Below are positions 1 to 7,887 of a stretch of 7,887 nt of DNA, one piece after another. Below the pieces are notes generated by a model, which was not told the origin of the DNA, ran no database searches, and was given only the letters and a program-made list of their open reading frames with translations. Each line of letters starts with the position of its first letter. The stretch's first letter is position 1. Position numbers and translations under genes: made by a program. The DNA comes from a virus (Duplodnaviria > Heunggongvirae > Uroviricota > Caudoviricetes), in the IMG/VR virus record IMGVR_UViG_2695420565_000011, positions 1 to 7,887 of that record. One strand, 5' to 3'.

Positions 1-25
1 CCCCCCCGAAACCCCCCCCCCCCCC
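1..25. repeat. Homopolymeric C tracts (C7-GAAA-C15-GAAA) at the window edge; G-tracts on the minus strand
   Basis: Read directly from the sequence. Homopolymers this long are unusual in enterobacterial DNA. Confidence 0.9.
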
Positions 26-68
26 GAAAGGCTCTGTGGTTGGTATGCGCCGGGCGTGGCGCAGATAC

Positions 69-92
69 AAAAAAGGCCCGCAAAAGCGAGCC
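69..92 (-). terminator. Intrinsic terminator downstream of the tRNA cluster
   Basis: Minus-strand RNA folds as GGCUCGC-UUUU-GCGGGCC (7-bp stem with one G.U, 4-nt loop) followed by UUUUUU (plus 69-74 = AAAAAA). It begins 16 nt past the 3' end of the Arg tRNA. Confidence 0.55.
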
Positions 93-108
93 GGGAAAAT
101 AAGTGTAG

Positions 109-182
109 CGCGTTGTACTGGAGTCGAACCAGTGACCGATTGCTTAGAAGGCAATTGCTCTGTCCTGCTGAGCTAACAACGC
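109..182 (-). tRNA. argO: tRNA-Arg, anticodon UCU (reads AGA/AGG)
   Basis: Manual cloverleaf on the minus strand: acceptor GCGTTGT/ACAACGC (7/7), D stem GCTC/GAGC, anticodon stem ATTGC/GCAAT with loop CT-TCT-AA, T stem ACTGG/CCAGT with loop TTCGACT. The 3' CCA is not encoded (G-CUA). Symbol is by position in the ileZ-argN-argO order recalled for Stx-type lambdoid phages. Confidence 0.8.
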
Positions 183-195
183 AGAATACCGATAA

Positions 196-271
196 TGGAC
201 CACCACCGGGGACTCGAACCTCGCACACTCAACTTAAAGGGTTGACGCTCTTTCCTGATGGCTAGTGGCGG
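196..271 (-). tRNA. Atypical tRNA-like gene (76 nt with CCA); canonical positions give anticodon UUU with C33; possibly degenerate
   Basis: Acceptor CCGCCAC/GTGGTGG pairs 7/7 (one G.U); anticodon stem TCAAC/GTTGA is perfect with loop CCTTTAA; T loop is TTCGAGT. But the D stem has only 2 Watson-Crick pairs, the T stem has one A.C mismatch, and position 33 is C rather than U. It sits where argN would be in a Stx-phage layout, but the sequence does not give a CCU or UCU anticodon. Confidence 0.5.
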
Positions 272-272
272 T

Positions 273-348
273 TGGTGGCCCTTGCTGGATTTGAACCAGC
301 GACCTGGCGATTATGAGTCGCTCGCTCTCACCACTGAGCTAAAGGGCC
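273..348 (-). tRNA. ileZ: tRNA with anticodon CAU, most likely tRNA-Ile2 (AUA-reading after lysidine modification) rather than elongator Met
   Basis: Cloverleaf: acceptor GGCCCTT/AAGGGCC (7/7), D arm TAGCTCAGTGGTGAGAGC, anticodon loop CT-CAT-AA, T arm GCTGG-TTCAAAT-CCAGC, encoded ACCA 3' end. Overall sequence resembles E. coli ileX more than metT (from memory). Confidence 0.8.
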
Positions 349-450
349 GGGCGCAGGATAATAACGTTACGAAATCAATGTTGCAAGCATACAAAAATCA
401 CCCTTATCTCCTCCACCAGCGCATTCACCATGTCTATCCGAGATAAGTGG

Positions 451-479
451 CACAACAAAACCCGCTTGTGGGCGGGTTT
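451..479 (-). terminator. tR'-like intrinsic terminator closing the short transcript downstream of the Q-like gene
   Basis: Perfect inverted repeat AAAACCCGC / GCGGGTTTT (plus 456-464 and 471-479) with a 6-nt loop. Minus-strand RNA is CCCGC-CCACAA-GCGGG followed by UUUUGUUGU. About 70 nt downstream of the predicted start site. Confidence 0.45.
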
Positions 480-531
480 TGTTTGCTTTTGCCATCACGT
501 ACAAAATCGGCAAAATATCAGATTTGCATGA

Positions 532-560
532 AATATATGCCTTTCAATCTACTTTTGCAA
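532..560 (-). promoter_or_regulatory. pR'-like late promoter candidate overlapping the 3' end of the Q-like gene
   Basis: Minus strand: -35 TTGCAA (plus 555-560), 17-bp spacer, -10 TATATT (plus 532-537). A -10-like GATATT lies at about +12 to +18 of the predicted transcript, as expected for a sigma70 promoter-proximal pause used by Q proteins. Confidence 0.35.
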
Positions 561-1233
561 CACTTTGCTTTGAAAATGCCGCCTTTTGTTTTGAACGTGT
601 TCTCATTACAAATAATAAAGCCTCACTATCCAGTCGGTGAAAAATGTGTTTCATTGCAACCCAGTGACGAGTAAATGTTTTGGACCAGTTTTTAGTTGTC
701 ACTCCCGCCAGTAATGCCAGCTCCTGATATTCATAACCTTCCCCACCAAAAAGTTCTGCTTTTACTGCCTGCGCCGCCAGCCAGATTAATTTTTTCAGGC
801 GTTCCTGCGTTTTCCCAGCAATTTTTCTGGTACCGGATTGAGTATTAAATTCATTCCACGCCCACTGTGTTATCGCGATCTGATATTCCCAACAAATACT
901 CCCGCTGTAACACCACAACAACCAGGCTTTATGATGTTCTTCAAGAGACAGAACAGCCCGCCGCCACGATGATGTCGAAAACTCAACCGGACTGACCAGA
1001 GGAATTGACGTCACCTTCGCCAGCGATTGCTTTCCCGGGATTGGTGGATTATCCCGCGTTATCATTTTTCCAGTCACTTCATCGCGGTACCGGATTTTTT
1101 TTCGCCTGTAACGCCCTGTATCGAACATGGCATTCTCCTGCCAGGCTTCAAGCTGACCTTTTGTTGCCCCACTCAAATCAGCGGTGGCGATAATGAGCTG
1201 CTCACGCACAAACTGTAAATAGTGGTTATTCAT
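544..1233 (-). CDS. Q-like late-gene antiterminator (QuuQ/YdfT-type placement), 229 aa
   Basis: Position is the main evidence: directly after rusA with an ATGA stop/start overlap, directly before a promoter-terminator pair and the tRNA cluster. Start moved from the track GTG (1239) to the ATG at 1233 that overlaps the rusA stop. No zinc-finger pattern seen; family assignment is contextual. Confidence 0.5.
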   Translation of the reverse strand: MNNHYLQFVREQLIIATADLSGATKGQLEAWQENAMFDTGRYRRKKIRYRDEVTGKMITRDNPPIPGKQSLAKVTSIPLVSPVEFSTSSWRRAVLSLEEHHKAWLLWCYSGSICWEYQIAITQWAWNEFNTQSGTRKIAGKTQERLKKLIWLAAQAVKAELFGGEGYEYQELALLAGVTTKNWSKTFTRHWVAMKHIFHRLDSEALLFVMRTRSKQKAAFSKQSVAKVD

Positions 1234-1595
1234 GCGCACTCCCGTTCTGTGATTTTTATCCCCAGCCGCCCACCAGGAACGAGCTGACCGCGCACAATAT
1301 TGATTTCATCAAACTGCTCGTCGTCTATGAGAAGTCCGGCATGCGTCAGCACATCCAGTGGTGCTTTCAGGATATTGTCCAGGTCACGACGGCGCTTATC
1401 CGGTGGCTCTGCAATAATCTTTATCACCAGCCTTCCGGACAGGTTTAATTTCAGCCGCTGCTGGCGAACAATTAGCGCCACATCACGGCGATAACGCTTT
1501 CCGGCTTCCGAGATGAAATACGTATTGCCATGACGTCGCCAGTAGGTATTCACCGTCGGCGGGTAAGGCAAAACAAATTCTATCCGTTCAGTCAT
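1230..1595 (-). CDS. rusA: RusA Holliday-junction resolvase
   Basis: 121 aa. The segment PDKRRRDLDNILKAPLDVLTHAGLLIDDEQ matches the RusA catalytic region recalled from E. coli RusA (PDRRRRDLDN...DALTKAG...DD). The ATG abuts the stop of the upstream gene (TGA-ATG). Confidence 0.85.
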   Translation of the reverse strand: MTERIEFVLPYPPTVNTYWRRHGNTYFISEAGKRYRRDVALIVRQQRLKLNLSGRLVIKIIAEPPDKRRRDLDNILKAPLDVLTHAGLLIDDEQFDEINIVRGQLVPGGRLGIKITERECA

Positions 1596-2651
1596 TCATG
1601 CTTTCCACTTCAGGACACCCGAATTTCTCGCGTGCATTAAAAAACGAATCAGCAACAACAGCTGGCTGCCGTGTTTTTCTTCAAAATCTTTTACCCCAGC
1701 GTGCAGTTCGTTATGACATTTACGGCACAGCGGAATAACAAACAAATCATCAGCCTTTGTTCCCATCCCTCCCAGTCCATGACCAATGATGTGATGCGGA
1801 TCATCTGCCTGATTACCGCACGTCATGCATTTCTGCGTTTTTACCCAGCGCGTGTATACAGGCATCTCTTCCCGTTGTGGTTTCTGGCGCTGGAGATACT
1901 GAGCCGGTGACTCCGGATCAACGGCAATGCTGACCACCGTCTTTTCCTGTGGCGGGTTTTGCTGGTGGGCGTGAGGCAGCGGCGCAAGATTTTTTGTGCG
2001 CTGCTTCAGTATGATGGTGGCGGTCTGCTCTCCCGGTACGATGTCGCTTTCACGGTACATTGAGCGGATTTTTTCCGCACGCAACCCCAGCGAACGACGT
2101 AATACCGCTTCCGGTAGCGCGTCCGCCACCTGATTGCGGACCGCCCACCAGGATAATTCAGCCAGAGATAATTCACGCTCCTGCGTACCGCTTATTGCGT
2201 GACCGATGACGTCAATCATCCATGCTGACAGGTTTTGATGAGCAAGTTGCTCGAGTGATTCGGATGTCTGGTCACGCAGCTGGTTGTCGCAGTGCCAGCA
2301 CAACACCATTGCGCCGGTACCGTAACGGTGAATGACGGTTTCGCTGTGATGATAATCACCGTGTAGCCACTGGCAGGATTTCACGTGACGTAATAACCAG
2401 TCAGACAGTGCACCAGCGCCACCCGCAGCACGGCTCACCCGCTCATCGCTGAAAAATGGCAGTAGTGATTTATCTTCCGCCAGCGGCTGGTGAACGGCAG
2501 GTACAACCCCGGACGGCAGAGCTCGCATGCTTTTTGGTTCCGGCTCCACCAGTATTCTGCCGTTATGGAATGCTGACATTGATTCACGGCCTGGCTTAAC
2601 GATAACCAGACCGAGTTCCGGTACCAGAACAGGTCGAAGTAATACCCGCAC
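1596..2651 (-). CDS. ydfU: DUF968 / YdfU-like lambdoid protein with C-terminal HNH-like Cys/His cluster
   Basis: 351 aa from a GTG start preceded by GGAGG. C-terminal motif CMTCGNQADDPHHIIGHGLGG...LCRKCHNELH (C-x2-C ... C-x2-C-H). Same size and same position (upstream of the late-region Q gene) as YdfU of the K-12 Qin prophage, recalled from memory. Confidence 0.7.
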   Translation of the reverse strand: MRVLLRPVLVPELGLVIVKPGRESMSAFHNGRILVEPEPKSMRALPSGVVPAVHQPLAEDKSLLPFFSDERVSRAAGGAGALSDWLLRHVKSCQWLHGDYHHSETVIHRYGTGAMVLCWHCDNQLRDQTSESLEQLAHQNLSAWMIDVIGHAISGTQERELSLAELSWWAVRNQVADALPEAVLRRSLGLRAEKIRSMYRESDIVPGEQTATIILKQRTKNLAPLPHAHQQNPPQEKTVVSIAVDPESPAQYLQRQKPQREEMPVYTRWVKTQKCMTCGNQADDPHHIIGHGLGGMGTKADDLFVIPLCRKCHNELHAGVKDFEEKHGSQLLLLIRFLMHARNSGVLKWKA

Positions 2652-2652
2652 A

Positions 2653-2931
2653 TTACCTCCAGATCCGTTGCTGGAATGTGCGGGACGGACGCGGTGGCCG
2701 TTCGGAGTAAGGGAGCCTGACGGAGATTATCCAGTGACGGTAGTCGAGGCTAAGGGCTTTTTTAACCTCGCATCCGCGCCTGCGGTAACACTGAATGAGC
2801 CATTCGGCCTGTTCTTCAGTGCATGGGGGATGCTGGTACCAGTCAGATTTGAATGCGTGAAAACACCGTCCGCGCCTGCTGGCAAAGACGGCAGAATCAT
2901 CAGAATTGTATAATTTGGTATCGTGCGCCAT
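2653..2931 (-). CDS. Hypothetical protein, positional equivalent of rem in Qin-like prophages (92 aa from internal ATG)
   Basis: The track ORF starts at a TTG (3012) that lies inside the hok terminator hairpin, so the start was moved to the first ATG (2931). Cys/His-containing basic protein with no recognised catalytic motif. Confidence 0.4.
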   Translation of the reverse strand: MAHDTKLYNSDDSAVFASRRGRCFHAFKSDWYQHPPCTEEQAEWLIQCYRRRGCEVKKALSLDYRHWIISVRLPYSERPPRPSRTFQQRIWR

Positions 2932-3001
2932 CGGTTGTCTCTGCTGGCGCAGCAGGTGCCAGTTGTTCAGGCTGGCGTGCGAATTGTAAACCAGAATGCC
3001 A

Positions 3002-3030
3002 GGAAAAAACAAAACCCGCCGAAGCGGGTT
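3002..3030 (-). terminator. Intrinsic terminator of the hok transcript
   Basis: Minus-strand RNA: AACCCGC-UUCG-GCGGGUU (7-bp stem, UUCG tetraloop) followed by UUGUUUUUU. About 70 nt downstream of the hok stop codon. Confidence 0.65.
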
Positions 3031-3069
3031 AAGTGCGGGTGCGTTGAGGATGCCTGATTCATCAGAGGT

Positions 3070-3091
3070 GGCGAGGGATTTCTCCCTCGCC
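3070..3091 (-). other. Stable hairpin in the hok 3' UTR (9-bp perfect stem, GAAA loop on the RNA)
   Basis: GGCGAGGGA / TCCCTCGCC inverted repeat with a 4-nt loop, 7 nt after the hok stop. No U-tract, so it is not a terminator; likely an mRNA folding or stability element. Confidence 0.5.
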
Positions 3092-3098
3092 GGGTCTC

Positions 3099-3254
3099 TT
3101 ACTCCTCAGGTTCGTAAGCTGTGAAGACAGCGACCTCCGTCTGGCCGGTTCGGATTCGTACCTCGCAGAGGTCTTTCCTCGTTACCAGTGCCGTCACTAT
3201 GACGGTGATACAGATGACGATCAGGGCGATTAACATCGCCTTTTGCTGCTTCAT
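3099..3254 (-). CDS. hokD: Hok/Gef-family type I toxin (HokD/RelF-like), 51 aa
   Basis: Translation MKQQKAMLIALIVICITVIVTALVTRKDLCEVRIRTGQTEVAVFTAYEPEE: one transmembrane helix plus the conserved Cys-containing periplasmic tail, near-identical to K-12 RelF/HokD as I recall it. AAGGAG sits 9 nt upstream of the ATG at 3254. The 19-codon in-frame extension in the track ORF (to 3311) is rejected. Confidence 0.85.
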   Translation of the reverse strand: MKQQKAMLIALIVICITVIVTALVTRKDLCEVRIRTGQTEVAVFTAYEPEE

Positions 3255-3375
3255 AGCCTGCTTCTCCTTGCCTTTCGGCGCGTAAGAGGCTAACCTACAT
3301 ATGTCTAGCATGAAATTGGCCTCAGATTAATGTTAGGCGTCTTGCAGGACGCGTAATGTTAACTGGGGCTTTTCT

Positions 3376-3411
3376 CTGTCTGCCTTACGGTGGCATGCCC
3401 GAGGCAGACAG
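3376..3411 (-). promoter_or_regulatory. GC-rich hairpin at the predicted 5' end of the hok mRNA leader
   Basis: 9-bp perfect stem CTGTCTGCC / GGCAGACAG with an 18-nt loop that contains the palindrome GGCATGCC. No U-tract on either strand. Confidence 0.45.
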
Positions 3412-3429
3412 CCTCAAGCACCCGCAGCA

Positions 3430-3457
3430 ATTCTACTTAACTCTCGCTTTACCGCAA
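3430..3457 (-). promoter_or_regulatory. Candidate hok promoter
   Basis: Minus strand: -35 TTGCGG (plus 3452-3457), 16-bp spacer, -10 TAGAAT (plus 3430-3435). The predicted start is about 10 nt before the 5' hairpin, giving an mRNA of roughly 420 nt, similar to plasmid hok mRNAs. Weak -35; low confidence. Confidence 0.3.
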
Positions 3458-3470
3458 ACCGTTTTTACCC

Positions 3471-3490
3471 GATATGGGAATTCCCATATC
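3471..3490. repeat. Perfect 20-bp palindrome GATATGGGAATTCCCATATC (candidate dimeric-regulator operator)
   Basis: Exact reverse-complement symmetry read from the sequence. Located between the small peptide ORF stop (3500) and the candidate hok promoter. No flanking U/T tract, so not a convincing terminator. Confidence 0.6.
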
Positions 3491-3499
3491 GTAATGAAT

Positions 3500-3604
3500 T
3501 CAGTTCCCTAGTCGATCCATCAAAAACACAACCAGGCAGTAAACGCCCACAACAGCAATAACAGCCAGAGCACCTTCCATTGCCAGTGAAATATCATCCG
3601 ACAT
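3500..3604 (-). CDS. Small membrane peptide ORF, 34 aa (MSDDISLAMEGALAVIAVVGVYCLVVFLMDRLGN), below the ORF-track size cutoff
   Basis: ATG at 3604 is preceded by AAAGGAGGGAAT, a near-consensus Shine-Dalgarno. Acidic N-terminus, one hydrophobic helix, short polar tail. An AT-rich promoter-like stretch lies upstream. Confidence 0.4.
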   Translation of the reverse strand: MSDDISLAMEGALAVIAVVGVYCLVVFLMDRLGN

Positions 3605-3719
3605 ATTCCCTCCTTTGGTGTGAATCCCGGCGAACGTTTTTACCCCCACCGACAAATAACATATACTAAAAAATCAATAGCTATAGCAACGCCTGTAATT
3701 GCAAAGGCTTCAGGCCAGA

Positions 3720-4364
3720 TCATTGGCGCACCTCCTGCGGCGGTTCTGGTAGCGGCATCCAGTCGGTTACATTGCGGCTCTGTGTTTCGAAAAATTCATC
3801 ACCATTACGGACTACATCAAAAAACTCACCGTCTCGATATTGCGCATAAAGAACGAATGCGCCATCACATAAAATAATTACGTGCTGACCATCATCCGGC
3901 ATTCGCTCACTACAGCTTATCCAACCATCCGGAGTTACCGGATAGTTTGTTGACGTTTCCGAGATTTCCCGAAAATTATTGGTTGACGAACCCTTATTTT
4001 CCCGAAAGTTTCCAGCCTGAAGCATGGCGGCGCTGTCTGGCGGGGCAGCATATAGCGGCACGTATATTTCCGGTTCCTTATCAGCACCGGGTTGCTCTTC
4101 CAGTGAGAATGTCTTTCCGGTAAATCGATTCATATAAAGCACGGGCTCTGCTTCCAGCGAAGCCTGAGCAACAAGGGCCAGTGCTAAATCCAACTCAATT
4201 GCCTCGAGAGAATTTTTGAATACTGTCTGTTTTACTGCAAATTTCATCGCCTTTACATTTTCACTAACATGACTGATTAACTGCTCTTTTGTAAAAGTGG
4301 TCATCTCATTCTCCTTTGATGCGAATGCCAGCGACAATTGAAGCCTGATAGCTAATTCACTCAC
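3720..4364 (-). CDS. Phage protein with C-terminal DUF551-like domain, 214 aa
   Basis: GTG start at 4364 with GGAGG 7 nt upstream; an alternative ATG at 4304 also has a GGAG. The C-terminal segment DGWISCSERMPDDGQHVIIL...WMPLPEPP resembles the DUF551 signature as I recall it. Confidence 0.55.
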   Translation of the reverse strand: MSELAIRLQLSLAFASKENEMTTFTKEQLISHVSENVKAMKFAVKQTVFKNSLEAIELDLALALVAQASLEAEPVLYMNRFTGKTFSLEEQPGADKEPEIYVPLYAAPPDSAAMLQAGNFRENKGSSTNNFREISETSTNYPVTPDGWISCSERMPDDGQHVIILCDGAFVLYAQYRDGEFFDVVRNGDEFFETQSRNVTDWMPLPEPPQEVRQ

Positions 4365-4453
4365 AGTACCGCCTCCTGAAAATTGCCCTGATAGAACGCC
4401 AGTACACGCAGCATAACTTCACTCTTCCGGCACTCGCCACAGATTATGTTCTG

Positions 4454-4756
4454 TTATCTGTCGTAGCGGCGTATTTCTCCGTCTGGTAACTTTCGAATCA
4501 ATGTCTGGTCGGTTGCTTTCTCCGCTGCCTTACGCCATACGCGATACACCTGTTCTGATGTAAAAACACCGTATTTACCGGGCATGTATAAATCGCCACA
4601 AGCCAGTACATCCACAAGGCAACGTCTGACTGAATGCCAGCCTGCTCCCGTCGCTCTCTCCAGTTGTGATATCGTCATGCGTTCATTTTTGCGTACCAGC
4701 CCGATAATTCGGGCCTTCAGTTCTTCACGCTGTTCGTGTGTAAAAGGTTTCGCCAT
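4454..4756 (-). CDS. Hypothetical basic protein, 100 aa
   Basis: ATG preceded by GGAGG; starts 15 nt after the stop of the upstream gene, suggesting co-transcription. No recognisable motif. Confidence 0.55.
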   Translation of the reverse strand: MAKPFTHEQREELKARIIGLVRKNERMTISQLERATGAGWHSVRRCLVDVLACGDLYMPGKYGVFTSEQVYRVWRKAAEKATDQTLIRKLPDGEIRRYDR

Positions 4757-4771
4757 AAGCGCCTCCGGCTA

Positions 4772-5542
4772 TCACTTTTCCGATACAACACGGCGGGAAG
4801 AATCAGTAATCTGTCGAACAATATCCCGGTGCTTGTTCAGCTCCCGCAGCGCGGCGCAGACTCGCTCCCACTTCTGAACATCACTTTTCGCCCTGCGCAG
4901 CGCCAGGTTTGCCCTGCGCAGGGACGGAAAAATCAGCTCATCTGCTTGCGTTTCGGTAAACGATAGCAACGGCTGCACAATGTCCGCCACAGTTTCTGTT
5001 TTAATTTCTTCCTGTGTTGCGGCTTCCCGGACTGGTAACGCAGCACCTGCTGGCTGAGGAAAGGCCTTACCATCATTTTTCGTTACCGGCGCGGCTTTCG
5101 GATCTGCTGGTAAATTACCCCCCGACATGCAGTAACGAAATTTACCGTTCTGATTAACGCGTGCCAGCCGCCCCGTTGCGGTTACCACCGCCAGCGTGGA
5201 AGCAACCTTGCGAGTACTGACGCCGAACTTACCCGCCAGTTCCTCACACGTTTTAGCACCATCCTGACCGATAAACTCAACCATCATGTCTGCGGTAACT
5301 TTTGGAGCGACCTCTTCGGTTACCACATCCGGCGCTTCAGGTTGTAGTGCCTGCCCTTCGGTTACCCCGGCTTCACCTTCGACAGCCAGAAACCAGGTGT
5401 GACCCGTTTTATCAACAACGCCATTTTTTTTGAGTTCCCACAGTTCGTTAAGAACTTCTTCACGGCTGATATCAAGCCGCGCCGCCAGTTCAACAGAATT
5501 GGCTTTTCCCATCGCTTTCAGTGCATGCAATACAGTTTCCAT
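4772..5542 (-). CDS. Hypothetical protein with two winged-helix-like segments, 256 aa
   Basis: N-terminal MGKANSVELAARLDISREEVLNELWELKKNGVV and a second similar segment GAKTCEELAGKFGVSTRKVASTLAVVTATGRLARV, then a Pro/Ala-rich linker and a helical C-terminus with a short LRRA repeat. No enzymatic motif. Confidence 0.6.
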   Translation of the reverse strand: METVLHALKAMGKANSVELAARLDISREEVLNELWELKKNGVVDKTGHTWFLAVEGEAGVTEGQALQPEAPDVVTEEVAPKVTADMMVEFIGQDGAKTCEELAGKFGVSTRKVASTLAVVTATGRLARVNQNGKFRYCMSGGNLPADPKAAPVTKNDGKAFPQPAGAALPVREAATQEEIKTETVADIVQPLLSFTETQADELIFPSLRRANLALRRAKSDVQKWERVCAALRELNKHRDIVRQITDSSRRVVSEK

Positions 5543-5567
5543 CGAAAATTTACCTCGTCAAAAATTC

Positions 5568-6308
5568 TCACATACCCTGACGTCCAACGTTTGACCGCCA
5601 GCTCTCCCAGTTAAAATTCACCCAACGACCACCATTCATGGTCATACGGTCCATCACCCGATCTCCGAGGAGTGTGCTCATCGCTGCGTGATTCAGGTTC
5701 GTCAGCATTCCGACACTACGCATCGAAGCCGTTCTGCGGTCGACTATCTGGTTCAGCGTGACCTGCTCGTTGCGCGTATCCCGCTGCATGCCAATTTCAT
5801 CAAGGACCAGAAGGTCAACTCCACAAAGCTCCTGTAAAAATTTTTCCCCGGACTGGCCGTTGTCGTAGCCGTCATGCAACACGCTCATGACATCGGACAC
5901 GGTGACGATAATCACGCTTCTCCCCTTCGCCATCAGCCGATTGCCAATCGCTGCTGCCAGGTGATTTTTACCGGTACCAGGTTTACCGCTGAACACGAAG
6001 TTTGTACATCCGGTCATCAATTCATCGGCAATGGATTTCGCCTGGCTCAGAGCATGGCGCTGACCGTCGTTCTGCACCCGGTAGTTCCCGAATGAGCACT
6101 TCCTGTGAAGCGGCTGGATGCCCGCACGGTTCAGGATTTTTTCAACCCGCACCTGATGATTCAGGCGGTTAATCTCCTCGCTGCGTTTTCGTCCTTCAGC
6201 AAGTTGCCATTCCCGCCACTCCTCCACCGTCCGGTACGGTGGAACCGCCCCCTGTGGTGCAAGTCTGCGAATACGTTCAAGAACCCCAACTGCCGCAATG
6301 TTTTTCAT
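5568..6308 (-). CDS. DnaC/IstB-like AAA+ helicase loader (functional analog of lambda P; YdaV-like)
   Basis: Walker A GKPGTGKNHLAAAIG and Walker B LLVLDEIG. The start lies 6 nt after the initiator gene stop. Size is 246 aa. Confidence 0.85.
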   Translation of the reverse strand: MKNIAAVGVLERIRRLAPQGAVPPYRTVEEWREWQLAEGRKRSEEINRLNHQVRVEKILNRAGIQPLHRKCSFGNYRVQNDGQRHALSQAKSIADELMTGCTNFVFSGKPGTGKNHLAAAIGNRLMAKGRSVIIVTVSDVMSVLHDGYDNGQSGEKFLQELCGVDLLVLDEIGMQRDTRNEQVTLNQIVDRRTASMRSVGMLTNLNHAAMSTLLGDRVMDRMTMNGGRWVNFNWESWRSNVGRQGM

Positions 6309-6314
6309 GACACG

Positions 6315-7277
6315 TCACCCCCTGAATCCCGGCGGTATTTCAGTGTCCGGTTCAGAAATGTGATTCACGCAACGCTGCGCAGGCGAACGCCCCAGGCGGA
6401 TAACCAGTTCATCCCATTTTTCCCGGAGTTTTGCCGGACTCATGATGTTTTTTACCCAGAACGAATCCCGCTGGAGACGCCCAAACATTTCACAAATTTG
6501 TCTGTGAGTTCTGCCATCCAGCATCCGCATTGTGCGAACGTCATTGGCCCATGCTGTCCAGTTGGGTTCTTTCGGTCTAGTGATCTCGCCATCATCGCTG
6601 GCCGCCTGCTCGTAAAGACTCACGATTCGTCCCCAGATCCACTGTGCGCACACCAAATCTTCCTGACTTCCCCACTGGCGTTTTTTCGCACTGAACACAA
6701 CCGCGTCAGGGTGTCGGGTTAAAAAATCCTGTTCAGCCGTCTGCGGGTCCGGTTGCGAAGCGTCCGGACAAGAAGATCTTTTATCTGACGGATCAGGTTT
6801 TAATACTGACGGATCGGGGTCAATCATCGCCCCCCTAATCGGCAGTTTTTTATCAACAGTTGATCCATCAAAATTTGACGGGTCAACCGTTGAGGGGTCA
6901 ATATTTGACGGGTCAACTGTTAACGGGTCATTTTTTGCCGGGCTAATTTTTCTTTTCGGTTTATATGACTCACGCGCCGCCGCCGCAGCTGCTTCGAGTT
7001 TTTCCACATTAAGCCGATAGATATTGCTTACATTACGCCCACCGACCTTACGCTCTTCCTTCGTCAGCCAGCCCTCTTTCGCCAGTTCTGCAATAGCCGA
7101 TTTCACTGTGGATTCACTTCTTGCACCGATCTGACGCCGGATAGTTTCAATGGCAGGCCATGACACGCCCTCGTCATTGCTGTAGTCTGCAAGACGGGCC
7201 ATAACCGCCACCCTGGATAAGATCATGCCGGTGAAGGCGCACCCTTCCCAGACAAGACCATGAAGCTTGCTGCTCAT
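6315..7277 (-). CDS. Replication initiator (lambda O analog; YdaU-type placement)
   Basis: N-terminal helix-turn-helix-like domain, then a linker whose DNA encodes the iteron array (protein repeats DPSNIDPSTVDPSNFDGSTVD), then a C-terminal domain. Start set to ATG 7277 (GGGGG upstream) rather than the track GTG at 7292. Confidence 0.7.
   Translation of the reverse strand: MSSKLHGLVWEGCAFTGMILSRVAVMARLADYSNDEGVSWPAIETIRRQIGARSESTVKSAIAELAKEGWLTKEERKVGGRNVSNIYRLNVEKLEAAAAAARESYKPKRKISPAKNDPLTVDPSNIDPSTVDPSNFDGSTVDKKLPIRGAMIDPDPSVLKPDPSDKRSSCPDASQPDPQTAEQDFLTRHPDAVVFSAKKRQWGSQEDLVCAQWIWGRIVSLYEQAASDDGEITRPKEPNWTAWANDVRTMRMLDGRTHRQICEMFGRLQRDSFWVKNIMSPAKLREKWDELVIRLGRSPAQRCVNHISEPDTEIPPGFRG
6875..6934. 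repeat. Candidate replication origin: four 15-bp direct iterons (TTGACGGGTCAAYNN), each with internal dyad TTGAC-GG-GTCAA
   Basis: GGGTCA recurs at 6880, 6895, 6910 and 6925, an exact 15-bp period. Degenerate copies TGACGGATC lie at 6786 and 6807. AT-rich stretches flank the array (6842-6874 and 6931-6965). The array sits inside the initiator coding sequence, as in lambda ori. Confidence 0.6.
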
Positions 7278-7299
7278 AAAACCCCCGAACACCGTGCTT

Positions 7300-7725
7300 T
7301 TAGTGCATCACCACAGCATTCCCTGCCGGGCCGCCGCGATTCATCTGGTCATACAAAACAACCGCTGACGCAACAAAATCATCGACATCCTTCACCAGCC
7401 GATCCCTCCGTTCGACGATCTCACGGTAATATTCAGAACTGTGGCTGCGCATACGGGCCACCAGCAAAGGCGGCATCGCCTTTTCGATCGCCGGTAACAG
7501 AGCCTGCATTTTTTCAACAGCATCAGGGGTGTCTTTATCCAGCCAACGGAAAATTTTCTGGGTATTACGGGCCAGGGCTTCCGGATGGCTGTCGTCGTAC
7601 AGTTCAGGGAACGTCATCCCCAGTTCGAAATAAGTCCGGGCTATTTCAGCTGCAGGAACTTTCTCACCATCAGGGTATGCCCAGGCATTCATCGCCATGC
7701 GGATGTGCTCATGTTTGATTTTCAT
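7300..7725 (-). CDS. ydaT: YdaT-like protein (CII-analog regulator/toxin family of Rac-type prophages), 141 aa
   Basis: Length and the N-terminal MKIKHEHI match my recollection of Rac YdaT. It sits immediately upstream of the replication initiator, as ydaT does before ydaU. Confidence 0.6.
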   Translation of the reverse strand: MKIKHEHIRMAMNAWAYPDGEKVPAAEIARTYFELGMTFPELYDDSHPEALARNTQKIFRWLDKDTPDAVEKMQALLPAIEKAMPPLLVARMRSHSSEYYREIVERRDRLVKDVDDFVASAVVLYDQMNRGGPAGNAVVMH

Positions 7726-7799
7726 GAATCATTTGCCTCTTGATGCTTCGGGTATGATCGTTTTCGTCATTTGGTTGCTTCATCGACATATTCTGCGAA
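7709..7799 (-). pseudogene. 3' remnant of a cro/ydaS-like gene truncated by the IS insertion
   Basis: An open frame runs from the IS boundary (7799) to a TGA at 7709-7711, encoding ...SQNMSMKQPNDENDHTRSIKRQMIHENQT and overlapping the ydaT-like start by 17 nt. No start codon or N-terminal helix-turn-helix remains in the window. Confidence 0.3.
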
Positions 7800-7887
7800 T
7801 GAACCGCCCCGGGAATCCTGGAGACTAAACTTCCTGAGAAAGAGGTAAACAGGATGACTAAAAATACTCGTTTTTCCCCTGAAGTCC
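7800..7887 (+). mobile_element. Left end of an IS3-family insertion sequence (IS629/IS1203-like), truncated by the window edge
   Basis: Begins TGAACCGCCCCGGGAATCC (IS3-family ends start with TG). An orfA-like start at 7854 encodes MTKNTRFSPEV, matching the IS629 OrfA N-terminus from memory. Only 11 codons are visible. Confidence 0.55.

Follow-up and report, generated by a model that had tools for sequence, protein, structure and literature searches.

Between the early genes of a lambdoid prophage and its hok toxin gene lie a very small open reading frame (ORF) and a perfect palindrome, and the question that the locus raises is whether the two belong together. The locus is part of a stretch of Caudoviricetes DNA, positions 1 to 7,887 of the IMG/VR record IMGVR_UViG_2695420565_000011 (the window, 7,887 nucleotides [nt]), which, read on its minus strand, is the Rac/Qin-type lambdoid early region of an Escherichia coli prophage. 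A reading of the window from its sequence only had proposed that the ORF, called ORF2 here, encodes a membrane peptide of the size of a type I toxin, that the palindrome is the operator of a dimeric regulator, and that both may form with hok a small regulatory or toxic module. We favor, with modest confidence, a different view: two independent features are adjacent here, a pair of mini-cistrons (ORF1 and ORF2) and an autonomous palindromic element.

The palindrome is real and conserved, and is slightly longer than first described. The 20-mer GATATGGGAATTCCCATATC at 3471-3490 had been given as a perfect 20-bp palindrome ten nucleotides past the ORF2 stop. The perfect symmetry reaches 22 bp (Table 1); its distance from the stop is 8 nt, or 9 nt when only the 20-mer is counted. 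The next pair out, pair 12, is a C/T mismatch in the window copy. An arm of 11 bp was reached in 1 of 300 first-order Markov simulations of the window. There is no second copy in the window, even at 3 mismatches, nor any half-site, and the 49-kb prophage region likewise has a single copy with no second copy or half-site.

The same palindrome is found far outside this prophage. When IMG/VR was scanned for its 16-bp core, the E. coli loci were joined by many unrelated contigs whose symmetry runs beyond the query. The identical 22-mer occurs 63 times in contigs taken as one genome per species, against about 0.03 expected by chance, in genomes that include cyanobacteria, alpha- and beta-proteobacteria, Dehalococcoidia, Clostridia, spirochaetes, Bacteroidota and enterobacteria. 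At least 36 of the 63 copies lie within KilA-N (PF04383) genes, all at one position (...RLKSTxxFxxELSxDMGIPISELIQxxKGGxxxxQGTWVHP...), and the window copy is identical to the commonest 22-mer of these genes. In a scan for the protein motif MGIPI...GTW, which leaves the codons free, the exact 16-mer was present in 58 of 97 KilA-N loci. CCC and the rare ATA are used in all 35 distinct KilA-N sequences, as against 1 of 10 non-KilA-N controls.

Where the outer part of the palindrome varies, it tends to vary on both sides. The three outer pairs covary, with 13 double-change cells for 2.2 expected, a value reached in none of 500 shuffles and obtained after several KilA-N sequences, first classed as controls, had been reassigned by eye. 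The covarying residues are D/S, V/T, N/L and S/D, which correspond to GAT/ATC, GTT/AAC, AAT/ATT and TCT/AGA. The symmetry ends at 11 pairs, pair 12 being symmetric in 48% of the KilA-N sequences. KilA-N genes were also sampled through sequence patterns on either side of the motif: of 21 distinct variants, 12 retain 8 or more symmetric pairs, and 8 lose the symmetry at a single central base only. One KilA-N gene (L443:390-420) encodes DTGIPVT in place of DMGIPIT, and the two amino acid changes (M>T and I>V; T>C and A>G in the DNA) keep the palindrome as TACGGGAATTCCCGTA. In a Bacteroidota KilA-N subfamily (L235, L259, L223, L277, L218 and L255) the homologous position holds the identical 22-mer one base out of register, so that it is read as RYGNSHI (EE-RYGNSHIA vs. 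S-DMGIPIS). Giant-virus KilA-N genes also carry the 16-bp core, with outer pairs that co-vary. Codon choice, compensatory substitutions that change amino acids and the use of a second frame, as seen in these comparisons, establish that in KilA-N genes the palindrome is kept at the level of the DNA.

From this pattern we infer that the palindrome may be a double-stranded binding site of dimeric KilA-N (APSES-like) proteins, since the KilA-N domain is the sole feature common to all gene-internal copies, since the site of a homodimer would show symmetric co-variation of its half-sites, and since cis sites inside the gene of their own user are common in phages, as with the iterons in the O-like gene of the window. 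A fuller proposal is that the 22-mer is the cognate KilA-N target, kept within the codons of the domain itself, and that orphan copies outside such genes are nodes of trans control or recombination between prophages, here at the boundary of the early operon and hok. We advance it tentatively. Of the operator proposed earlier, then, a dimer site is still the best guess, of KilA-N type and not that of a local regulator of hok or the peptide. No regulator gene lies beside the palindrome, and the YdaT of the prophage recognizes TTGATTN6AATCAA, which is unlike it (PMC9986795). Three observations speak against an operator specific to hok: the spacing to the hok -35 differs between loci (11 vs. 29 nt), there is a single copy in the prophage, and the same 22-mer recurs across many phyla.

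The window copy counts as an orphan because it is intergenic and KilA-N genes are absent from its prophage; orphans account for about 27 of the 63 copies in the genomes. KilA-N proteins encoded by a sibling or co-resident prophage could act on it in trans. Such action is plausible because a sibling prophage with the same DUF1627-DUF977-DUF551-ORF1-ORF2 string encodes a KilA-N protein directly downstream of its cI-like repressor, 5.6 kb from the orphan site. At L098:4228-5734, in a sibling prophage, the KilA-N gene follows a cI-like repressor (HTH_3 + Peptidase_S24), in a rex-like slot expressed in lysogens; the palindrome inside that gene differs at one central base. Binding at the window site might create a roadblock between the early operon and hok, or might modulate the hok promoter. 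The palindrome does lie upstream of that promoter, as had been noted: it spans -47 to -68 relative to the hok mRNA start (leader, 3423), with its center 57.5 bp upstream of the start and its near edge 11 nt upstream of the inferred -35. The promoter was placed tentatively, by reading the sequence relative to the Rfam leader start at 3423 and to the hok promoter of plasmid R1. The consensus promoter scan of the window does not call it.

Orphan copies elsewhere are found in varied settings. One (L123/L278) sits in a decayed KilA-N fragment between cro and cII of a Siccibacter-type prophage and looks like the relic of a KilA-N gene. In another prophage, the 22-mer follows the stop of a dinI-like gene by 8 nt, ahead of a canonical terminator. 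Lytic E. coli phages of the genus Dhillonvirus (L111, about 6800-6950; MZ501097.1) have an intergenic 22-mer between direct repeats (GGCAACCAATGCGCGCA), adjoining the helicase-primase gene and other short repeats, and this region may be an origin or a control region. Repeats in Xenorhabdus are also among the orphan copies. In Alcaligenaceae, Tolypothrix, a proteobacterial metagenome-assembled genome (MAG) and a high-GC viral contig, differing palindromes centered on GGAATTCC or GGGAATTCCC cluster within tens of bases of the 22-mer (Table 1). Two Alcaligenaceae MAG contigs (L241:1-70 and L271:1-70) share, at their ends, 22 nt, the palindrome and a T-arm-like GGTTCGAGTCCCGC, after which they diverge. 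The palindrome was considered there as the variable arm of a tRNA; ARAGORN finds no tRNA at these contig ends.

The peptide, for its part, is a genuine gene under purifying selection, transcribed and heavily translated in uninduced O157:H7 lysogens. Its Shine-Dalgarno (SD) sequence, said earlier to be stronger than that of most genes in the window, has the strongest anti-SD duplex among the window gene starts tested, a ranking that leaves out rusA and Q (-12.1 kcal/mol). Folding of the mRNA is predicted to leave most of the SD unpaired, and the fold itself is unremarkable (z = -1.0). The peptide has a single hydrophobic stretch, GALAVIAVVGVYCLVVFLM (residues 11-29; 19 amino acids; mean Kyte-Doolittle hydropathy 2.72), and a net charge of -3. 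The 15 nucleotide alleles found at 92 loci differ by 16 synonymous and 14 conservative nonsynonymous changes. The dN/dS ratio is about 0.30 (p = 0.001) in frame 0 only; the other two frames are unbiased and gain stops. The stop codon of ORF2 is kept, one allele having TAA for TGA. Conservation of the reading frame, the absence of which had been named as grounds for dropping the gene, is thus borne out, and of 5426 complete E. coli genomes 671 contain the 221-bp interval with ORF2, counted at a coverage of at least 80%.

The gene had been called unannotated, which is true only of the gene track available to that reading. RefSeq has it as the hypothetical protein WP_001278450.1. Ribosome profiling of O157:H7 Sakai (Huecker et al., 2017; PMC5597208) lists it within XECs145, for which a more distant, non-canonical start was called and whose 34 C-terminal residues are those of ORF2. 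The ribosome profiling that had been suggested as a check was therefore already available, and it finds the ORF covered by ribosomes. In lysogeny broth (LB), XECs145 has reads per kilobase per million (RPKM) of 79 in the transcriptome and 346 in the translatome, a ribosome coverage value (RCV) of 4.35 and a coverage of 0.99 (PMC5597208, S2 Table). In brain heart infusion (BHI) the values are 121, 150, 1.14 and 0.84, and under cold plus salt stress 73.3, 1.1, 0.01 and 0.37 (PMC5597208). The same study predicts an inner-membrane location with one transmembrane helix and no terminator (PMC5597208). Literature searches on the peptide found nothing other than the Sakai supplement. Pfam, NCBIfam, PHROGs and PADLOC give no match for ORF1, ORF2 or a fused form of the two. 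Protein searches, made with the 51-residue upstream-extended frame and by exhaustive HMMER, return near-identical E. coli sequences only, so there are no distant relatives to inform the role of the peptide. As judged from these searches, the family is confined to E. coli prophages.

A second mini-cistron, ORF1, precedes ORF2 and is coupled to the stop of the DUF551 gene (Table 1). Its SD (AGGAGG at 3731-3736, -11.6 kcal/mol) is the second-best in the window, and an SD is kept at three different upstream junctions. ORF1 is intact in 86 of 92 loci, and one clade has an in-frame deletion of 6 nt. It probably codes for protein, by these signs. ORF2 starts 35 nt after the ORF1 stop, inside the operon string. 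ORF1, through its coupling, and ORF2, with its own strong SD, would thus be a mini-cistron pair that ends the early gene string of replication genes, DUF1627, DUF977 and DUF551. Each ORF encodes one transmembrane helix, and both peptides are likely to insert in the inner membrane. Since rare alleles encode one two-helix protein, the two probably work together. Their role would be that of an accessory, moron-like factor in the membrane, and not that of a Hok-like toxin held by an antisense RNA.

Table 1. Positions of the features discussed, in the window and in other contigs
Sequence	Feature	Position	Strand	Remarks
Window	DUF551 gene	3720..4364	minus	upstream member of the early-operon string that holds ORF1; ORF1 translationally coupled to its stop
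Window	ORF1	3640..3723	minus	hydrophobic ORF of 27 amino acids, MIWPEAFAITGVAIAIDFLVYVICRWG; ATG overlaps the DUF551 TGA (ATGA); absent from RefSeq annotation
Window	G5 run	3643..3647	minus	directly before the ORF1 stop TAA, 3640-3642
Window	ORF2 Shine-Dalgarno, AAGGAGG	3609..3615	minus	4 nt before the ATG
Window	ORF2	3500..3604, including stop	minus	ATG at 3604, TGA 3502-3500; 34 amino acids, MSDDISLAMEGALAVIAVVGVYCLVVFLMDRLGN
Window	Perfect 22-bp palindrome, CGATATGGGAATTCCCATATCG	3470..3491	.	orphan copy of the palindrome found inside KilA-N genes
Window	hok promoter, inferred	3430..3458	minus	-35 TTTGCG 3453-3458; 17-nt spacer; -10 TAGAAT 3430-3435
Window	hok mRNA leader and sok antisense region	3249..3423	minus	Rfam RF01794; 114 bits; E = 3.7e-26
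Window	hok (HokD-type) toxin coding sequence	3099..3254	minus	mok frame up to 3311; terminator 3013-3030
L231	Palindrome cluster	about 2600-2700		
L267	Palindrome cluster	about 4440-4500		
L256	Palindrome cluster	about 7850-7990		
L196	Palindrome cluster	about 13850-13910		

If peptide, palindrome and hok were one module, they should travel together. In related prophages each occurs without the others. In eleven complete genomes ORF1, ORF2 and the palindrome are followed by convergent ibrB/ibrA in place of hok. Prophages of the PPompW type have paa, palindrome and hok without the peptide, the break lying within the last codons of ORF2. In a further arrangement an ORF6N gene precedes the palindrome and hok, with 29 nt to the hok -35 as against 11 nt in the window. 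Strain JNE23 keeps the hok-proximal half of the palindrome only. Where hok has neither peptide nor palindrome, it is preceded by a divergent KilA-N gene in the DUF551-hok slot or by relBE. The latter is the case in Qin of K-12 MG1655 (L008, 1645119-1645872), as had been pointed out, and relBE there has displaced the hok leader in full as well: homology to the window sets in only at 3268, the SD of hokD, from which it follows that the hok promoter, the leader/sok region and the palindrome were lost to the relBE cassette. This separate occurrence of the parts, with the lack of type I toxin features described below, argues against a single module. In four arrangements both flanks differ while a palindrome core of 20 to 23 bp stays intact, and this persistence, while the genes on either side are swapped, shows that the palindrome marks a recombination joint. 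On a 90-kb plasmid (L003; pHX138.261ft_1, NZ_CP091840.1, 58410-61630) the ORF1-ORF2-palindrome-hok block has no phage context and lies between copies of IS30, IS5 and IS1, with a ygiW/ydeI-family gene as neighbor.

Several observations count against the view of a gene pair beside an autonomous KilA-N site. On the side of the palindrome, no KilA-N-DNA complex is detectable by sequence in the PDB, and literature searches found no description of the motif nor of a KilA-N target site. The annotation of the 49 kb around the prophage (O103:H2 12009) lists no KilA-N gene, and the palindrome is single there. Of the 33 orphan-copy loci tested, 31 had no KilA-N gene in the locus retrieved, so the idea that orphans are neighbors of KilA-N genes is not supported. 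Symmetric covariation fits a hairpin as well as it fits a dimer site, and three C>T changes in the stem of the E. coli palindromes lean weakly to an RNA hairpin (p about 0.125). On the side of the genes, the XECs145 reads could come from several paralogous O157 prophage loci (multi-mapping) or from spontaneously induced cells. ORF1 has no synonymous excess, for which reason its coding status is probable and not proven, and its commonest allele has an Asp in mid-helix.

The main rival reading concerns RNA. Could the palindrome be a hairpin at the 3' end of the ORF1-ORF2 transcript, which protects it from 3' exonucleases or causes pausing or partial termination of read-through before the hok promoter, like the repetitive extragenic palindromic (REP) hairpins of E. 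coli operons? The predicted hairpin is stable (9-bp stem, AAUU loop, -14.5 kcal/mol, z = -3.5) and is present in both the minimum free energy (MFE) and the centroid folds of the whole message. The palindrome travels with ORF2 where ibrBA replaces hok, and the copy after the dinI-like gene stands, at the same 8 nt from a stop, before a canonical terminator. The E. coli variants comprise one loop change and three independent stem substitutions, all of them C>T in the 3' arm, and so keep G-U pairs in the sense RNA. Against this, the stem is followed by GGGUAAAAACGG on the sense strand and by GUAAUGAAUUC on the other, neither with a U-tract, so the palindrome is not an intrinsic terminator; the terminator scan of the window does not call it, nor does the Sakai study predict a terminator for XECs145 (PMC5597208). 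The palindrome is kept upstream of hok where ORF2 is absent. In the KilA-N genes, mismatches are C-A as often as U-G on the sense strand, which gives no support there for a sense-RNA hairpin, and three substitutions in E. coli are too few to decide at the p value given above. We regard the RNA hairpin as an unlikely explanation, if a serious one.

The palindrome might also have no function here, being a leftover or recombination scar, for example of an exchange with a KilA-N gene in the same slot, and be kept because the interval between ORF2 and hok is young and nearly invariant. The overall diversity of that interval is indeed low, module breakpoints fall at or inside the palindrome (PPompW, JNE23), and in other prophages KilA-N genes bearing the palindrome occupy the DUF551-hok slot. 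Yet the flanks of the window copy hold no KilA-N remnant, and homology to a KilA-N-type locus begins only at the hok -10, for which a KilA-N gene relic at the window site was rejected. A scar is also hard to square with a core left intact in the four arrangements where both flanks differ, and with orphans that recur in the non-coding DNA of unrelated phages, such as the intergenic region of Dhillonvirus. We consider a mere scar quite unlikely.

For the genes, an alternative is that ORF1 and ORF2 are halves of a decaying protein of 74 residues, split by a change from G6 to G5, or are rejoined by phase variation of the G tract or by a -1 slip at G_GGG_G UAA. Alleles with G6 do fuse ORF1, a basic linker of 13 residues and ORF2 into an uninterrupted 74-residue, two-helix protein; they occur on two diverged backgrounds, each near-identical to G5 alleles. 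As read from the sequence, exactly this fusion would also result if tRNA-Gly slipped by -1 on the G run, and a hairpin predicted in the centroid fold covers this run and the ORF1 stop. However, G6 is confined to three metagenome or Logan contigs (L009, L010 and L011), whereas G5 is found in 31 of 35 distinct haplotypes, including every complete genome examined and all IMG/VR loci but one. In strain M18 the linker has A4 in place of A5, 1 nt shorter, which would set any fusion out of frame. The changes in the linker, 3 nonsynonymous and 1 synonymous, give no sign of coding, and an X_XXY_YYZ heptamer is lacking. ORF2 has retained an ATG and a near-ideal SD of its own and evolves under selection. 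Given the dominance of G5 and the shorter linker, the split form is taken as the norm, and frameshift or phase variation is unlikely on these alleles; decay of a once-continuous protein or its rejoining, taken together, is improbable.

There remains the type I toxin. ORF2 has the size and hydrophobicity of the small membrane peptides of that class, it is prophage-encoded and lies immediately beside hok, which it adjoins in most loci, and the whole block is carried as one on the plasmid segment flanked by insertion sequences. Unlike the Hok/Gef toxins, it has no sequence similarity to them, no antisense RNA antitoxin, no promoter of its own with a long SD-hiding leader and no mok-like coupling frame. 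It sits in an operon right behind another small ORF, with its SD open. The four family databases match it to no known toxin. In 3380-3800 the hok leader is the sole Rfam match at E <= 10, which leaves room for a novel antisense RNA, and on the plus (antisense) strand promoter-like and terminator-like sites are no commoner than in shuffled sequence. A net charge of -3 is unlike that of most type I toxins. ORF2 is found without hok and hok without ORF2. Its strong translation in healthy growing cultures (the RCV of LB) is hard to reconcile with a membrane-killing toxin. Along the lines of the sequence-only reading, ORF2, alone or together with ORF1, could be a type I toxin or belong to a toxic module tied to hok, the palindrome serving as operator; this is very improbable.

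On the minus strand of the window the order of genes is ydaT-like, O-like, dnaC-like, DUF1627, DUF977, DUF551, ORF1-ORF2-palindrome, hok, an ORF of 90 residues, DUF968, rusA, Q and tRNA genes. Within the O-like replication gene, at 6853-6942, are six tandem iteron-like repeats of 15 nt (TCAAnnnTTGAnGGG), which also form an inverted repeat of 33 nt. They are probably the replication origin of the prophage, as in λ. Downstream of Q, at 108-348 on the minus strand, ARAGORN finds three tRNA genes, Arg(tct), Lys(ttt) and Met(cat), two of which are called by Rfam at the gathering score.

How do these features compare with known systems? ORF2 resembles the small single-pass inner-membrane proteins found in E. 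coli by ribosome profiling, being shorter than 50 residues, with one helix, a strong SD, ribosome-profiling support, conservation within Escherichia and no assigned function. It differs from them in being prophage-borne and acidic (-3), and in following a coupled mini-ORF to which it is occasionally fused. The KilA-N palindrome has its closest parallels in cis sites that lie inside the gene of the protein that uses them: the ori iterons of λ in gene O, the pac site of P22 in gene 3 and oriL of P1 in repL. What these cases share with it is a conserved DNA element located within the coding sequence for a DNA-binding protein. The KilA-N palindrome is distinct in being short and perfect, in recurring across phyla and in giant viruses, in being read in two frames and in having orphan copies, and it is a putative site only of the encoded protein.

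Fungal APSES domains bind short, specific DNA sites. Related to KilA-N and known from solved structures (Mbp1 and Swi4), they account for all the similarity to the KilA-N protein found in the PDB (1bm8, 1mb1 and 1l3g, E = 0.3-0.5). The Mbp1 site, ACGCGT, is unrelated in sequence to the palindrome. Short palindromes between and inside genes, at operon ends and at recombination joints are also familiar from REP hairpins in E. coli operons and other 3' stabilizers, and from the Rickettsia palindromic elements found in frame inside genes. The present palindrome differs from these in its single copy per prophage and in its fixed, homologous position in KilA-N genes, which is not that of a random insertion.

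In closing, the peptide is a known but uncharacterized small membrane protein with an overlooked upstream partner. It adds to the catalogue of small membrane proteins that are expressed in lysogens and have no assigned role, a useful but ordinary addition, and ORF1, likely its partner, has been overlooked by current annotation. The motif linked to KilA-N is widespread, was not found described in the literature searched and is the part worth following up. Few DNA-binding domains are as widespread in phages, prophages and giant viruses as KilA-N, for which the palindrome would be a concrete candidate target site. It may help to explain some of the mosaic joints of lambdoid prophages, and it suggests a route of cross-talk between co-resident prophages in pathogenic E. 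coli.

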